DNA of 32,000 bases. It comes from Candidatus Heimdallarchaeota archaeon. GTDB taxonomy: Archaea; Asgardarchaeota; Heimdallarchaeia; Heimdallarchaeales; Kariarchaeaceae. A program made the position numbers and the translations under genes. Numbering within the stretch: the first letter of the stretch is position 1; each line of letters begins with the position of its first letter. This document shows positions 17,369-28,422 of the stretch, piece after piece. The stretch lies in assembly GCA_030149205.1 (NCBI GenBank), contig JASBSB010000001.1:180001-212000 (forward strand), written 5' to 3'. The notes below the pieces were generated by a model that did no database searches, had not been told where the DNA came from, and saw only the letters and a list, made by a program, of their open reading frames with translations.

Positions 17369-19594
17369 ATGGTCAGAGACTTAATCGAAAGAGTGAAAAA
17401 TTTTTATTCCTCTGAGCACCCATTCTCCGAATTAACACTTTCTGAGTTTGATATTCAATTAAAGGCAGCCTTTGAAACCAGACAATACTTCTCTTTAGGA
17501 AAGAATTCTGTTGTGGTTCCGGGATGGATACTTGAGCAACTTGCCCCTGGTGGAAAGGCAAAGCATGGTTTAGCTGCACTGCCAATCATTTCAAACAATG
17601 AGTATAGAGATTACTATGCGGTGGGGTCTCCTGATTCTAGTATTGAACCTGTAATAGACCATAGAGGAGGTATAATCCCAAAACCTGACTCCTACACTCT
17701 CGTTGTAGGGACAATTGTAAATGATAAACCAATTTACTCCTCTGAAGCAGGTAAAATTGATATTCAGCTCCATGATGACGGATTCCCTATAGTCATGGTG
17801 AATTGGAAAGTTGACGGAGATGAATGCTCGTATGAATGTGTTGCAGACAGAGATGAAGAAGGAGTAGAGACTCTCGCTATCAATGTTGTTAGAGGTTTTG
17901 CTAATCACCAACTACTTCTGACACTCACACCACTTGATCAGGTGAAACTTACAAGGGTTGAGACCCTTGAATGGATGGATAAGTCCCAGACATTAATTGT
18001 CAATGGGAAAGCACAAATCAAAGTTTCAGAAAAGCCCCTCAACGCTGTTGCATTACCTATTGAAAGAGGTCATGCTGGAAGGTGGGTCAATAAGCTTGAA
18101 CCATCACACGTAGCGACTTGTAAATCTCAAGCTGCTTCGTGGGCCGTAAGGTTTCCTGTAAGAACCAGAGTTTCAATTCTTGTTAACTTGACTGAGGGAC
18201 AAGAATTTGAGATGGTTGACTCTGATGATGTAGAGGATAAATGGATAGAGGAGATTGAAAACTTTCCAATAATCCACACTGGAGACCCTTTAGTTGACAC
18301 TTTGTTTAAGAATAGTGCAATAACACTGAGATTACTCCTCGATAAAATCAATGATGAGATTACACTTGGTCCAAGTTTACAAGAAGAAATGTGGCCACAA
18401 TGTTTATACACTCAGATTAAGGCGATTCACAGATTAGGGGTAGAAGATTCAACAATTCAGAGCATAATAGATAATGCACTGAGCAGGGTAAATGACTCAG
18501 GAACTATCAACGATTTAAATGAATGGGATGCATTGGGATCATTGGTTCTAAGTGTTGCTATCTCCAATCAGTTCACAAATGACACGAATTGGTTAGGCGA
18601 AAAATTTTCAATCATCAAAAAAATAATAGAAAATTTTTCAAAGCTTCGGAAAAAAAACCAAACAGATGATCCAAGGAATGTCCTACTCCCAGCAGGAACT
18701 CAGGCATTTTATGACCCTATCTTTAAAATATCAGACCAGTTTTTCTACCATAACATGTGGGCATTAAAGGGAATTGAGATATTTAGACAGCTAGCTTTAA
18801 AATTAGGAAGAAAGAACGAAAGTGAGGCAAAGACTTCTGAAATACAAAAATATCGTGACGACCTTAACTCACTAATGATTCAATCTTCCTCAACAAATGG
18901 GTTTGTTACCCTTGGTCCAAAATTACAGGAAAATGCGAGCATGTTTTTTAATTTACACTCATTCTATCCACTTAGGTTACACACAAACAATTTTCAGCCT
19001 CTCATTAACACCCTGAATCAGATATCAAAAGAATATGTTGTAGATGGGGGGCTTTTAATGTATCAACCATGGAATGCCTACGGAACTTATCTAACTATGC
19101 AATACGCACAGATGTTAAGGTATGTTGAGAGAACAGAGAAAATAAAGAACTCCATTGATTTCTTAATAAAGAATCCAACAAACAAACAGGGTTGGGGAGA
19201 AGGAATAAGTCCAAACAGGAACAGTGCATCTGTAGGAGATTCTCCCAATGGATATGCAGCCGCAGAATTCATTAACCTAATCGTTGACCTCTTTGTTGAT
19301 GAACCACTGTTTGAGGATATCACCTTGTTAAAAGGTATTCCCTTAGATTGGTTGAAGAATGGAGTCGAAGCCCAAAACCTCCATCTTTCAGATGGAGATC
19401 ACATTTCATTGAAAGCATCTCTCACAGCTAATATATTTGAGCTTGAATATGACTATTCTGGAAACAAACCACTTTTCCTCTACCTCCCCTTAAAACCTGA
19501 AAGAATAGATAAAACATTAACCCAAACCTCTCCAGATCATTATAAATTACCATCGAACAAAGGTTCAGTAAAAATACCAGTTATTCTAAACTAA
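17369..19594 (+). CDS. Six-hairpin glycosidase superfamily protein, no signal peptide
   Basis: Beta-rich N-terminal half, helical C-terminal half with WDALGSL, YHNMWALKG and WGEG...GDSPNGYAAAEF, then an LLKGIPLDW beta domain. Family and substrate not assignable. Confidence 0.6.
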   Translation: MVRDLIERVKNFYSSEHPFSELTLSEFDIQLKAAFETRQYFSLGKNSVVVPGWILEQLAPGGKAKHGLAALPIISNNEYRDYYAVGSPDSSIEPVIDHRGGIIPKPDSYTLVVGTIVNDKPIYSSEAGKIDIQLHDDGFPIVMVNWKVDGDECSYECVADRDEEGVETLAINVVRGFANHQLLLTLTPLDQVKLTRVETLEWMDKSQTLIVNGKAQIKVSEKPLNAVALPIERGHAGRWVNKLEPSHVATCKSQAASWAVRFPVRTRVSILVNLTEGQEFEMVDSDDVEDKWIEEIENFPIIHTGDPLVDTLFKNSAITLRLLLDKINDEITLGPSLQEEMWPQCLYTQIKAIHRLGVEDSTIQSIIDNALSRVNDSGTINDLNEWDALGSLVLSVAISNQFTNDTNWLGEKFSIIKKIIENFSKLRKKNQTDDPRNVLLPAGTQAFYDPIFKISDQFFYHNMWALKGIEIFRQLALKLGRKNESEAKTSEIQKYRDDLNSLMIQSSSTNGFVTLGPKLQENASMFFNLHSFYPLRLHTNNFQPLINTLNQISKEYVVDGGLLMYQPWNAYGTYLTMQYAQMLRYVERTEKIKNSIDFLIKNPTNKQGWGEGISPNRNSASVGDSPNGYAAAEFINLIVDLFVDEPLFEDITLLKGIPLDWLKNGVEAQNLHLSDGDHISLKASLTANIFELEYDYSGNKPLFLYLPLKPERIDKTLTQTSPDHYKLPSNKGSVKIPVILN

Positions 19595-23548: not shown

Positions 23549-23845
23549 GTGACAGAATTAAGATTAACACAGGAAGACAGAAGTAAAATAATTACTATAT
23601 CAAAAGCAATGGCATCAGAAACCAGGTTTTCAATTTTACAACTATTATCTGAAGATGAATATGATATTAGTAAGCTTGCCCGTACTTTGGATCAGACAGA
23701 GGCAAATATTAGTGCACAAGTTAAGCATTTGGAGAAAGCCAAACTTGTCGAGTGTCGTTATGAACCAGGGAATCACGGTGTAAGAAAGATTTGTAAGACA
23801 ATTATTCACTCCTTAAACATTGAGATAATTAAAGAAGATTCGTAA
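23549..23845 (+). CDS. ArsR/SmtB-type HTH transcriptional regulator
   Basis: KAMASETRFSILQLL, DISKLARTLDQTEANISAQVKHLEKAKLV and wing GVRKIC; GAGGG upstream of the GTG start. Confidence 0.85.
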   Translation: MTELRLTQEDRSKIITISKAMASETRFSILQLLSEDEYDISKLARTLDQTEANISAQVKHLEKAKLVECRYEPGNHGVRKICKTIIHSLNIEIIKEDS

Positions 23846-23946: not shown

Positions 23947-24186
23947 ATGGCAGAAGCATACATTTTAATCAACACCAATGTTGGTGCAGAACTAGACCTT
24001 CTTCCCAAGATACGATCCTTGAAGGGAGTTGTCCTGGCAGACATTGTCTATGGAACTTTTGATCTGATTGTGAAGGTAAAGGCCACAAGTCAACAAGAAC
24101 TCAACCAGACTGTTCTTAAGCAGTTTCGTACTTTAGATGGTATTAGAACTACTATGACACTTATGGCACTAAGTGAAGACGATTAA
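23947..24186 (+). CDS. Stand-alone Lrp/AsnC ligand-binding domain protein
   Basis: AYILIN...VYGTFDLIVKV...GIRTTMTL pattern; 79 aa; no HTH. Confidence 0.9.
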   Translation: MAEAYILINTNVGAELDLLPKIRSLKGVVLADIVYGTFDLIVKVKATSQQELNQTVLKQFRTLDGIRTTMTLMALSEDD

Positions 24187-25098
24187 TTAATCTTGAGACC
24201 TTAATTTATTTTCAAAGTTAATTTCTACCGCATTGGCAATTAGAATTAAGATCATTCCTCCTATTACCACGATTGTTGGTAGAACCATTCGTATAATATC
24301 TATTAGCAGGGCAAATATTGGTTCCAATGCGAAAATTATTGCAATTGTGGGTGGGGTGACACCAACCTTCTGAGCAAAAGTTTGACTGACAAATGCGAAG
24401 GCACTTGCAAAAAAAGCGGTTACAAGTAGGGTGATCCAGACGATCATAGGTTCATTAGCTGTACCTGGTATCCAATATGTAGAATTTATAAGAGAAAGAA
24501 CACCAGATTCGAGTGAAACCACGTAGAGCTGAAGTGTTACAAGGGTGTACACAGGTAGATTAGCATATCTGTCTGTGAACAGAACGTGATATGCCACAGC
24601 GAAGGCTGTTACCACAATTAGCATATCCCCAATTTGTGGCATTAGGCTGTTAAAATCAAGTGTCATCAACGCAAGCCCTGTCAGTGAAATGACGGTTGTC
24701 CCAATCTGTGTTTTTGAAATTTTCTTTTTGAATGGGGGGGTGATTGCTACAATCGGCACGAGTACCACATTTATCCCAGTTATGAACGCTGCTTTAGCTG
24801 GTGTTGTCAGAGTTAATCCAATAGTTTGAAAGATGAATGATATGTACAGTAGGGTCCCCAGCAGGATTGCAGGAAGTAGTACACCTCTGATTGAAGTATG
24901 CTTTAATTCTCTCAAAGCCAATGGTGTGAGTATTACTGCTGCAATCAGAAACCTTACTGTTAAGAATCCATCGATCGGGATATATGTTACAGTCTCCTTT
25001 ACCAGAAAGAATGTACTTCCCCAGAAGAATGTTGTGAGTATCAACATTAAGAGGCTGGTCTGGTATGTTCTCACGAATAGCTCTACTTCTATGATCAC
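24187..25098 (-). CDS. DMT/EamA family transporter
   Basis: FWGSTF, FQTIGLTLTTPAKAAFITG, GDML, QTFAQK and AIIFALEPIFA motifs; about 10 TM segments. Confidence 0.92.
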   Translation of the reverse strand: MIIEVELFVRTYQTSLLMLILTTFFWGSTFFLVKETVTYIPIDGFLTVRFLIAAVILTPLALRELKHTSIRGVLLPAILLGTLLYISFIFQTIGLTLTTPAKAAFITGINVVLVPIVAITPPFKKKISKTQIGTTVISLTGLALMTLDFNSLMPQIGDMLIVVTAFAVAYHVLFTDRYANLPVYTLVTLQLYVVSLESGVLSLINSTYWIPGTANEPMIVWITLLVTAFFASAFAFVSQTFAQKVGVTPPTIAIIFALEPIFALLIDIIRMVLPTIVVIGGMILILIANAVEINFENKLRSQD

Positions 25099-25114
25099 TT
25101 AATGGTTTTGTTGT

Positions 25115-25301
25115 ATCCTGTGCAGTGCCGTTTGCAATTGAGCAGTGCATCACCATCCTGCGCAGTGCGCATGTCTGCTGAGCAGTGCACGCATGACCCT
25201 GCGCAGTGCCTAGAACTGCACATGCGCAATAAGATGCGCAGTGCACAAGGCAGACAAAGAAAGGATGTTGCAGTGCACAAGGCATTTACACTGATCCTGT
25301 G
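25115..25301 (+). repeat. Phased direct-repeat array of seven TGNGCAGTGC-type boxes with unconserved spacers
   Basis: GCAGTGC at 25122, 25142, 25162, 25182, 25203, 25238 and 25270; about 55% GC by hand count (25115-25284) in an AT-rich context. Confidence 0.9.
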
Positions 25302-25599
25302 GTTACCAAATCATAGATTCTTCAAGGGTATAACTGATCTTTCTTACATGAACAATGCAGAGATTAGAAGATTGGGTTAAAAAATTGAAGAGGGATCATT
25401 TAATTATGCATCTAGATTAGCATATGACTTCGACCTACTTTTTTACCAATGACGCAGATTTCAGAGTATGTAATTGTTTGTCCTGAAAAACAATCTTAGC
25501 ACTTCTAACTATTAAATACTTAATTTAAAAATTGCTACTTTATAATTAGTTGTTAGCGTTTACTATATCTTTTATAATAAATTAGGACATATTATTAAT

Positions 25600-26517
25600 G
25601 TGTCATTAGATTCATCTCTGCTTAAAGATTTAGACAATTCAGGTCTTCCAGCTAAGATTTTAGATAGTCTCCCTTATGCAATAAGCATTCAAAAGAACTC
25701 AAGAGAGGTGATTTATGAAAATAAGAAAATGGTAGAGATTTTTGACTCTCGCATAGGAAACTCGTGTTACACTCGCTGGTCTTATCTGGATGATTATACA
25801 AACGCTATTTGTGTTGATTGTCCTTCAAAATTCTCCATCCATGATGGAAAGGAACACTTCATTATTCGGAAGACAGAAAACAAGGATGGTGAGGAGATGG
25901 TGCTTGAGATTAGGCACGTTCCCATTTTTGAATCAGATGGTAGTATTCACGGATTTATTGAGATTATGCAAAATGTTACACCTCAAAAGAAGGTTCGATA
26001 TCTACAACTGTTGGACAGAGAGGGACTCAAGTCCAAAGTATTTGTAGCTTTAACACAGTTCAATGGATTACCAACAAACATGGTTATTCAAAAGGAACCA
26101 GTACCTTTCATCTCCTCTTCCTCAGATTCAGAGATTGAATTTTATGGAAAAAGTTCTATATTTTGGACTGCTGCGATTGGGCAAGGATCGTATTGGAAAT
26201 CTGGATTTTTTGGACCACTTCCGCTCCTAGACATCGAGGATTATCAAACATACGCTTTCAGCTTTAGGCTTAAATCGGAGCAGGAGATTGATGATCGATT
26301 AGAAGGTGAATCATTGCTGCTTCTTCAATTTTTTGTTCCTTTTGAAGCAACAATTTTGTTAACAAACCAGCCTGAGATCAAAGAATTCATCAGTGAGTGG
26401 GTATCACAATATACCAGTGTTGAGGATATACGAGAGAGGTTTAACATTTTGGAATTCAAAGAGAGATTTTTTGAAAAATTAAAAAGAGTTAATATTGAGG
26501 TTCAATCTTTTATTTAA
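25600..26517 (+). CDS. PAS-domain protein (Cys-motif variant) fused to an unassigned C-terminal domain
   Basis: ILDSLPYAISI...VIYENKKM...IGNSCY...CVDCP...EIRHVPIFESDGSIHGFIEIMQNVT is a PAS pattern; no kinase or HTH output domain. Confidence 0.75.
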   Translation: MSLDSSLLKDLDNSGLPAKILDSLPYAISIQKNSREVIYENKKMVEIFDSRIGNSCYTRWSYLDDYTNAICVDCPSKFSIHDGKEHFIIRKTENKDGEEMVLEIRHVPIFESDGSIHGFIEIMQNVTPQKKVRYLQLLDREGLKSKVFVALTQFNGLPTNMVIQKEPVPFISSSSDSEIEFYGKSSIFWTAAIGQGSYWKSGFFGPLPLLDIEDYQTYAFSFRLKSEQEIDDRLEGESLLLLQFFVPFEATILLTNQPEIKEFISEWVSQYTSVEDIRERFNILEFKERFFEKLKRVNIEVQSFI

Positions 26518-27627: not shown

Positions 27628-28422
27628 TTATTGTGTTGATCTACGTCTAATTAGTAAATCACTTGTATAAACTGTGACATCATCTATTTCGTTTTCATTG
27701 ACCATTTTCAGGATTAAGTCAGTTATCTGCTCAATATCAAGACCATATTCCTCACTTAGATCCTCAAATTTGATCTCAGTCTTTCCCCCTTCCCAGTCTA
27801 GTTTTACCTCTTCACTAATTATCTCAGGGAGAAGCTCTCTAAGTACAACGGTTCCATTCTGTCGGACACTTATTGGAGAAGACCTTGAGTAGACTATATC
27901 TTTAACAAAATTTCTTACCTCTTCTTCTTCAGGAATCTGTGACAAAAGGTCCTTAAAATTTATAATTTCCTCAGCAAAATCATATGAATTGAGTACAGAC
28001 TTCCATTTGTTTTCGACAAATTCTTTGGAATATATTGAATCTTGGGCAAATATGAAATTGTTAATAAGTTGTTTCCTTTTCATTTCATCTTTTAAAGCAA
28101 TTAATGAGCGTTTAGGGGAGAGTTTAACCATTGATCCTAGTTCGTCTATTGTTAATGGCTTTTTGCTAAGTAAGTCAATTGCATCCTGTAATTCTACACC
28201 ATCCCCTGGGAGAAACCACCCCTTTTTGCCAACCATTCTTCCCTGAATCTGTTTTGTGGAGATTAGTTCGTCCATGGCTTCCAACATTAGATCAGCTTGA
28301 ACAGGTGCATCAGGGAGTGTAGTTACTTGAACTGGATCCTTGAATTCATAACTTAATAAAAACAATTTTGCCTTCTCTATGGGTTTTGGTTTGCTTTTAA
28401 AGAACTTTTTTAGGAATGACAT
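27628..28422 (-). CDS. Tandem winged-helix (PCI-like) protein with a basic amphipathic N-terminus
   Basis: EAMDELISTKQIQGRMV, LTIDELGSMVKLSPKRSLIAL and IKFEDLSEEYGLDIEQITDLILKMVNENEI are WH-like units; starts MSFLKKFFKSK. Confidence 0.5.
   Translation of the reverse strand: MSFLKKFFKSKPKPIEKAKLFLLSYEFKDPVQVTTLPDAPVQADLMLEAMDELISTKQIQGRMVGKKGWFLPGDGVELQDAIDLLSKKPLTIDELGSMVKLSPKRSLIALKDEMKRKQLINNFIFAQDSIYSKEFVENKWKSVLNSYDFAEEIINFKDLLSQIPEEEEVRNFVKDIVYSRSSPISVRQNGTVVLRELLPEIISEEVKLDWEGGKTEIKFEDLSEEYGLDIEQITDLILKMVNENEIDDVTVYTSDLLIRRRSTQ

Follow-up and report, generated by a model that had tools for sequence, protein, structure and literature searches.

A single-locus cluster of TGCGCA-type palindromes beside an exporter gene module in one Heimdallarchaeia genus

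Box array and neighbouring genes

The window analysed here is a stretch of 32,000 nucleotides from the genome of a Candidatus Heimdallarchaeota archaeon (NCBI GenBank assembly GCA_030149205.1; working label G000; 3.3 Mb, 35% GC), namely positions 180,001 to 212,000 of contig JASBSB010000001.1 (G000:C4:180001-212000). This report concerns a GC-rich array of palindrome-like boxes at positions 25115-25301 of the window, next to the start of a gene for an EamA-type transporter. The local order is: ArsR regulator gene (+), RAM-domain gene (+), EamA gene (-), the array, an AT-rich stretch (25450-25599, with a GC content down to 18% in one 100-bp window), and a gene for a 305-aa protein (+). The array is composed of the following elements.

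25115-25301, no strand assigned: GC-rich box array: seven TGNGCA-G-TGCNCA doublets plus an abutting pair of hexamers and an incomplete eighth box
25119-25131, plus strand: box 1, A type, ATCC-TGTGCA-G-TGCCGT
25139-25151, plus strand: box 2, B type, TGAGCA-G-TGCATC
25159-25171, plus strand: box 3, perfect dyad TGCGCA-G-TGCGCA; the same 13-mer is found in the array of the related genome G001
25179-25191, plus strand: box 4, B type, TGAGCA-G-TGCACG
25200-25212, plus strand: box 5, A type, ACCC-TGCGCA-G-TGCCTA
25217-25228, no strand assigned: abutting hexamers TGCACA and TGCGCA without a central base, described as a 'partial inverted copy' in an earlier note on this DNA
25235-25247, plus strand: box 6, C type, TGCGCA-G-TGCACA followed by AGGCAGAC
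25267-25279, plus strand: box 7, C type, GTTGCA-G-TGCACA, with a weak left hexamer
25294-25301, plus strand: ATCCTGTG, first part of a truncated A-type box rather than a target-site duplication

Scanning of the window revealed seven plus-strand copies of GCAGTGC (25122, 25142, 25162, 25182, 25203, 25238, and 25270) at steps of 20, 20, 20, 21, 35, and 32 bp, exactly as the earlier note had reported. Approximately one copy would be expected in the window by chance, and none of 100 shuffled sequences gave eight. Elsewhere in the window, where the earlier note had noticed no copy, the word is almost but not strictly absent, the only other copy being located on the minus strand at 17576. The whole genome contains 90 copies of GCAGTGC on both strands; outside the array, no two of them are within 60 bp of each other. 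In a scan of the genome for clustered 7-mers, the array ranked among the top three, and of the four clusters with at least seven copies, it alone combines regular spacing with a step not divisible by three. The array thus proved unique in the genome-wide scan that had been proposed in the earlier note. No second copy or cluster was found in G000 even at weak thresholds, nor was an origin from a CRISPR repeat or a paralog. The CRISPR array of this genome (G000:C2:586650-589100, outside the window; period of ~66 bp, 30-nt repeat GTCTAAGAAGTACCTTTATGGTCTGGAAAC) is unrelated to the box array.

Each box is a 13-bp pseudo-palindrome with a GC-rich centre, GCA-G-TGC. Aligned on the central G, all seven have T-G-N-G-C-A-G-T-G-C in common; the inner GCA-G-TGC part is intact in 7/7 boxes (49 positions), whereas variation is found in the outer halves. 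Pairwise comparison of the seven boxes gave a mean identity of 0.78 for the core (-6 to +5) and of 0.27 for the flanks, the random expectation being 0.25. Accordingly, two 40-bp units (25115-25154 and 25155-25194) agree in 13/14 and 11/11 box positions (24/25) but in only 2/15 spacer positions, so that boxes are indeed kept and spacers are not. The full dyad of box 3, the sequence GCAGTGCACAAGGCA common to boxes 6 and 7, and the occurrence of ATCCTGTG at both array ends (25115 and 25294) were also found as described. In terms of hexamers, the array holds five perfect TGCGCA and six one-mismatch copies, laid out as seven doublets plus the abutting pair. The helical phasing suggested earlier applies to part of the array: a strict spacing of 20-21 bp is limited to the first five boxes, and the phasing of all seven is weak or marginal (Rayleigh p ~0.04-0.13; 10.0-10.8 bp per turn tested). 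With regard to GC-containing alternating purine-pyrimidine runs, the array region ranks first in G000 by a wide margin (78/200 bases versus 43 in the runner-up). The seven CpG dinucleotides of the array are not extreme for this genome, and a CpG-island explanation was dropped. Restriction-site avoidance of TGCGCA was also considered and found unremarkable (78 occurrences versus 97 expected from a Markov model).

The array is not an assembly artefact. One 373-kb contig from the probable source run spans it completely, and a hydrothermal-vent run from an independent study carries it on two short contigs with 93-97% identity; the misassembly envisaged in the earlier note is thereby excluded. One of the vent contigs covers positions 24909-25243 with nine substitutions and no gap, the other positions 25216-25464 with 17 substitutions and one deletion.

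The array is also non-coding. Open reading frames (ORFs) run through the repeat in all three frames, a 1-nt deletion at 25259 in the vent strain disrupts the long ORFs through the array, and these ORFs had no family match, with low recognition of a 92-aa ORF in the protein atlas. The earlier view that the repeat is not protein-driven is supported. A 61-aa minus-strand ORF through the array (25095-25280) has a TGA stop overlapping the EamA start codon (GTGA), which resembles translational coupling. As a gene, this ORF was rejected: it shows no coding sign and no family match, and the repeat is read in three frames.

The neighbouring features are listed below; gene X is named after its counterpart next to the array in related genomes.

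23549-23845, plus strand: ArsR/HTH_20 regulator gene, 98 aa; in relatives, the first gene of an ArsR-EamA operon
23947-24186, plus strand: gene for a stand-alone RAM (AsnC_trans_reg; amino-acid-binding) domain, 79 aa; relatives carry the array on its upstream side
24187-25098, minus strand: EamA/DMT-family transporter gene; start codon GTG 25098, GTG 25074, or ATG 25047
25099-25108, minus strand: 10-mer AAACCATTAA directly before the EamA GTG, marking the old ArsR-EamA junction
25376-25389, minus strand: nearest TATA-like site pointing to the array and EamA; predicted transcript start at ~25354
25600-26517, plus strand: right-hand neighbour of 305 aa, predicted tandem PAS protein; own leaderless-type TATA TTTTATAA at 25570-25577 (-29)
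27628-28422, minus strand: gene X, 264 aa, with weak winged-helix/PCI-like hints; 2.3 kb from the array here

The distance of 17 bp between the array and the EamA start, as given in the earlier note, holds for GTG 25098; another gene caller starts EamA at ATG 25047. Promoters were sought with a model built on 1050 genes of G000. In ~24% of genes, this model has an A-rich stretch followed by a TTTAAA-type TATA box 30-23 nt before the start codon (leaderless genes); a separate class carries Shine-Dalgarno motifs (GGAGG/GGTGA around -12). By this model, no strong TATA box or Shine-Dalgarno motif is present near the EamA start, the proximal TATA-like site being at best weak (25097-25110, 95th percentile), and no TATA-like site occurs on either strand between 25099 and 25375. 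Beyond this gap, a second distal minus-strand TATA-like site (25522-25535; predicted transcript start at ~25500) follows the one at 25376-25389. If the latter site is used, the array would be transcribed as an EamA leader.

These promoter predictions bring up the possibility that the array acts as RNA, namely as part of a 255-400-nt EamA leader in which seven copies of GCACUGC would bind a multivalent RNA-binding protein or fold. Besides the gap without TATA-like sites and the two predicted distal starts, the uniform orientation of all seven boxes fits this idea, as does a stable 11-bp hairpin that the abutting hexamer pair could form with box 6 (25213-25247). Folding energies of the array are, however, near those of shuffled controls on both strands (z = -1.9 and -1.3), and a search of Rfam gave no match. 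The arrangement in related genomes, described below, makes a role as leader RNA very improbable.

The model of the 305-aa protein shows two PAS-like domains with high confidence (predicted local distance difference test score of 88 with 36 sequences). The first domain contains a Cys-x15-Cys-x2-Cys pattern; the second has a conserved AIGQG...GLFGPLP...D.R motif. Approximately 30 full-length relatives exist, and the second half of the protein has no Pfam match. A role of this neighbour as a Rep protein or transcription factor was rejected in favour of a predicted tandem-PAS sensor. Gene X begins with MSF(F/L)KK and is present in 10/12 genomes of the family; its product has no solved relative and shows at most weak winged-helix/PCI/UFL1-like hints. 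RAM domains are encoded at eight loci in G000. Four of these, all elsewhere in the genome, have open frames of 162-202 aa, potentially long enough for a full-length regulator.

Homologous clusters in relatives and rearrangement of the locus

Clusters of perfect TGCGCA hexamers were identified at the syntenic place in three relatives: 11 copies in 127 bp (G001); 10 in 136 bp (G003); and 10 in 98 bp (Logan contig L272). Among the 47 genomes of the order, three TGCGCA copies with gaps of at most 17 bp occurred in three, all members of this genus and with one locus each; the reversed-pattern control gave no match in the same 47 genomes. In G001, G003, and L272, the gene order is ArsR and EamA (one operon), a convergent RAM gene, and a divergent 265-aa gene X (L272:3892-4689), and the cluster forms a GC-rich island in the gap between the divergent RAM and X genes. 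The RAM promoter, TTTTTTAA, faces away from the array at a distance of 55-86 bp, and gene X starts 75-115 bp from the other edge, which places the array upstream of both predicted flanking promoters. On the side of gene X, the array ends just upstream of a conserved AT-rich element.

The perfect dyad of box 3 recurs in the G001 array as TGCGCAGTGCGCA; the G003 array contains TGCGCAGTGCA and GCACAGGGCAGAT versus GCACAAGGCAGAC here (box 6 plus flank). Outside the boxes, the arrays of the relatives could not be aligned. Their hexamers follow one another at steps of 7-23 bp with no 20-bp period. GCAGTGC arises where two TGCGCA-like hexamers meet with one base between them; the conserved word is the palindromic hexamer TGCGCA and not GCAGTGC. 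The unit proposed in the earlier note, as well as its constant central G, is present in 7/7 boxes here, but the relatives keep TGCGCA instead; judged from the arrays compared, both this central G and the 20-bp phasing are confined to the lineage of G000. Preferential conservation of boxes, which the note had expected at homologous loci, was found; conservation of their spacing was not, as the latter turns over. The public annotation of G001 includes an 80-aa gene across the TGCGCA island (L292:4132-4374), with no such call in L272. Comparison of the two shows the island to be non-coding, and the call is probably spurious and due to the GC-rich sequence.

No array was detected at G007-type loci or at more distant EamA loci, and none is present upstream of EamA and ArsR in the relatives. 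A search of the latter regions missed the array because its homolog is located upstream of RAM. The ArsR-EamA-RAM trio itself was found in four species-level genomes of two genera and in two metagenome contigs, in three gene orders (L265, L267, L266, L272, and L293). Identities to the relatives are 72-75% for ArsR, 58-62% for RAM, and 52-57% for EamA, and the trio looks like a sensor-regulator-exporter module. In a search for closer relatives, the exact RAM protein was found on the source contig only, the nearest EamA homologs being 57% identical. As far as can be judged from synteny, the cluster is a conserved cis-element of the ArsR/EamA/RAM/gene X neighbourhood in one genus of Heimdallarchaeia.

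The location of the array between two outward-pointing promoters in three relatives bears on the leader-RNA proposal: an island upstream of both would work, if at all, as DNA. The conserved word is, moreover, a DNA palindrome, and conservation takes the form of identical direct words and not of compensatory pairs. The same synteny speaks to another role offered in the earlier note, a small non-autonomous insertion or a solitary multi-site transposon end flanked by an 8-bp duplication, ATCCTGTG. This sequence does occur at both ends, the array is GC-rich and foreign-looking in composition, and its multi-site layout resembles the ends of Tn7/Mu-type transposons. An insertion is nevertheless hardly credible. 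Homologous arrays occupy the syntenic place in three other genomes with no empty site; ATCCTG(Y)G is the start of an A-type box and is repeated at 25155 and 25196; and neither a second copy nor an opposite end is present in G000. In scans of public genome, metagenome, and viral contigs for three GCAGTGC copies at 19-21-bp steps, a pattern that turned out to be too loose, we retrieved only ordinary, perfect minisatellites and coding repeats of unrelated organisms.

Comparison of G000 with its sister species revealed an inversion of the convergent RAM-EamA pair, which lies between ArsR and the array. The 10-mer AAACCATTAA, which precedes the EamA GTG in G000, lies in the gap from the ArsR stop to the EamA start of G003, and the inversion breakpoint is thus placed at ~25109-25114, i.e., at the array edge. 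RAM retained its own short promoter after the inversion. The gene X ortholog (42% identity to gene X of the relatives) has moved to 27628-28422 on the minus strand, and the PAS gene and a 266-aa gene are now found between it and the array. As a result of the inversion and of the relocation of gene X, the array now abuts the EamA start. Judged from these gene orders, both array edges are rearrangement breakpoints and the array itself stayed put.

An element that remains while both neighbours are exchanged might be independent of the adjacent genes. It could be a chromosomal cis site, either a place, present once per genome, where a structural or segregation protein loads (as in centromere- or pac-like sites) or a Z-DNA or cruciform element that senses supercoiling and favours breakage. 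We consider this a slim prospect. It would agree with exactly one cluster per genome in three species, with breakpoints at both edges, and with the top rank of the array in alternating purine-pyrimidine content, although the putative Z-DNA propensity follows from the box sequence. Sets of 6-10 short repeats are also typical of plasmid centromeres (PMC4627068). On the other hand, no RHH_1 gene is encoded in the window, and comparison of 20 window ORFs with Pfam revealed no terminase or partition family (a dedicated search for ParA, ParM, TubZ, or SegA was not part of this comparison). There is no skew inflection near the locus, and the Orc1/Cdc6 genes are at least 56 kb away. Confinement to one genus would also be odd for a core chromosome function. 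Slightly slimmer still is the prospect that the cluster, in place of an ordinary gene operator, is a single-copy loading or structure site, at which a dedicated protein would coat ~100-190 bp in a centromere- or boundary-like role or the alternating purine-pyrimidine boxes would change to Z-DNA under supercoiling, and that would at the same time be an inversion hotspot.

Two specific roles of this kind named in the earlier note found no support. For an iteron-type replication origin, an AT-rich stretch is available nearby, but the neighbouring gene encodes a predicted tandem-PAS protein, and there is no Rep gene, no turn in cumulative skew, and no Orc1/Cdc6 gene within 56 kb. A plasmid-type centromere has the repeat array as an analogy only, with no RHH_1 gene in the window and no partition family among the 20 ORFs scanned without a dedicated search.

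A candidate operator-like cluster

With moderate confidence, we read the array as a DNA-level cluster of candidate sites for one sequence-specific protein, which would most likely dock there next to the genes of an amino-acid-exporter module. Copies of a short palindrome that are kept while the intervening DNA changes are the signature of such a site cluster. Between G001 and L272, box positions are 82-95% identical and non-box positions 47-52% (EamA proteins, 73%), figures that are somewhat generous to this interpretation because the repeats themselves aid the alignment. Among the roles offered in the earlier note, a protein-loading site or cooperative operator fits best.

The recognized word would be TGCGCA, which here occurs mostly in doublets of the type TGNGCA-G-TGCNCA, and the putative binder would be a single sequence-specific protein, probably dimeric and cooperative. 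In the sister species, the array occupies the presumably untranscribed stretch that separates the divergent RAM and X promoters and would serve both as a shared upstream operator or activator platform, with cooperative loading along ~100-190 bp. In G000, EamA has presumably lost the ArsR promoter and may now be controlled by the adjoining array. Two modes of action can be envisaged. As an upstream activating region, the array could assist the weak TATA-like site at 25097-25110; alternatively, it could act as a roadblock to transcription from either distal TATA-like site (25376-25389 or 25522-25535). The sequences themselves show the motif, its single occurrence in the genome, its presence at the syntenic place in relatives, the replacement of spacers, and the rearrangement; that a protein binds, which protein this would be, and any influence on EamA are what we infer.

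The local ArsR protein is an unlikely binder. Its recognition helix, TEANISAQVKHLEKA, is invariant in four genomes and is also present in G007-type genomes, which possess no array. No TGCGCA or GCAGTGC box was found within ~200-300 bp upstream of ArsR in G000, G001, G003, and G007, and a search for a shared operator in the ArsR promoters revealed the TATA box alone in common. The array as an operator of this ArsR is thus unsupported.

These observations on ArsR belong to several that weigh against a site cluster for one protein. The right-hand 305-aa neighbour has no recognizable DNA-binding domain. The regions upstream of gene X in G002 and G007 contain no array. Perfect TGCGCA accounts for only five of ~15 hexamer positions here versus 10-11 copies in the relatives, a deficit that could reflect decay after both original promoters left. 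The comparison with the vent strain, finally, rests on low-depth contigs, for which the differences in the left part and up to three differences in the right contig are unlisted; with this limit, two substitutions and one deletion are listed for the right 86 bp of the array, as against 12 substitutions in the next 163 non-coding bp. The listed array differences are confined to a spacer and the weak left hexamer of box 7 (25268 T>G and 25270 G>A).

The same data have to be read with a relic in mind. In this scenario, the array works or worked as the RAM/X control region in the sister species but has lost both promoters here through rearrangements and is decaying, with a 20/40-bp pattern that arose by local tandem duplication and not by selection. 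The low number of perfect hexamers agrees with decay, and most of the variants are single changes at the central CG (TGTGCA, TGCACA, and TGAGCA). Further points are the breakpoints on both flanks, the absence of a strong promoter adjoining the array, and the further alteration of box 7 in the vent strain. Uniform decay, however, would not leave GCAGTGC intact in 7/7 boxes (49 positions) next to flanks of random identity. A recent duplication cannot explain identical boxes, as the spacers of the 40-bp units have only 2/15 positions in common. Within the limits of the vent comparison given above, the array of the vent strain is 97.3%/~96.5% identical versus 92-93% in both the PAS gene and the non-coding flank. 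We regard a decaying relic as unlikely and retain the site cluster for one protein as our interpretation.

Similarity to known systems

To our knowledge, very few cis-regulatory DNA elements have been defined in Asgard archaea. The array is a concrete, conserved, and unusually dense element of this kind, with 10-11 copies of a 6-bp palindrome in the relatives and a single locus per genome. As a kind, operator-like repeat clusters are known. As far as our searches reach, there is no earlier description of this TGCGCA word and its dense packing, of its confinement to a single locus per genome within one Asgard genus, or of its persistence when promoters were exchanged; a literature search for TGCGCA in archaea returned primers only. 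The exact word could be used as bait for an Asgard DNA-binding protein. If binding cannot be demonstrated, the finding shrinks to a lineage-specific repeat island. If the proposed role is correct, a control region has outlived the loss of both its original genes and now stands before the amino-acid-type exporter of the same module, which would make the locus a natural experiment in regulatory rewiring by inversion.

Operators of the Lrp/FFRP (feast/famine regulatory protein) family are imperfect palindromes of 13-17 bp with an AT-rich centre. Archaeal Lrp-type sites form clusters of imperfect copies two or three helical turns apart (PMC2995911). The array resembles the clusters bound by Ss-LrpB, Ptr2, FL11, and BarR (PMC2995911) in its 13-bp pseudo-palindromes, in the clustering of imperfect copies, in the spacing of 2-3 turns seen in G000 alone (20, 20, 20, 21, 35, and 32 bp), and in its position upstream of weak promoters. 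A link to amino-acid physiology is also shared, given the RAM-domain gene and the exporter at this locus. Unlike Lrp boxes, those of the array have a GC-rich centre, CAGTG. In addition, the locus encodes a stand-alone RAM domain and no full-length Lrp protein, the arrays of the relatives lack the 2-3-turn phasing (steps of 7-23 bp), and they contain 10-11 sites versus the usual 2-6.

Arrays of short, closely packed words are known from several systems, such as the metbox arrays of MetJ and the parC iterons of ParR, which are cases related to that of Omega. The RHH protein Omega of plasmid pSM19035 binds 6-10 unspaced 7-bp heptads at operators and centromeres (PMC4627068). Like these, the array contains many 6-7-bp words at 7-9-bp steps, direct or inverted, in a promoter region, and by analogy it could be coated cooperatively over ~100 bp by a small dimeric protein. 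In contrast to these known cases, which are plasmid or bacterial systems with a known RHH binder encoded alongside, the array is located on an archaeal chromosome with no RHH_1 gene in the window. Its hexamers are irregularly spaced in the relatives and arranged in 20-bp doublets here. The hexamer pac sites of P1-like phages, clusters within or beside a small-terminase gene, are a further comparison. The array is chromosomal, syntenic across species, and surrounded by metabolic genes, and no terminase or other viral family was matched among the 20 window ORFs compared with Pfam; a pac site is thus unsupported.

The regulator EarA recognizes four 6-bp sites just upstream of the BRE (B recognition element; PMC5512572). 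EarA differs from the present case in having a known binder, four sites versus 10-11, and a different word, but shares with it the layout of an archaeal promoter activated, or here potentially activated, via repeated 6-bp words directly upstream of the core promoter.

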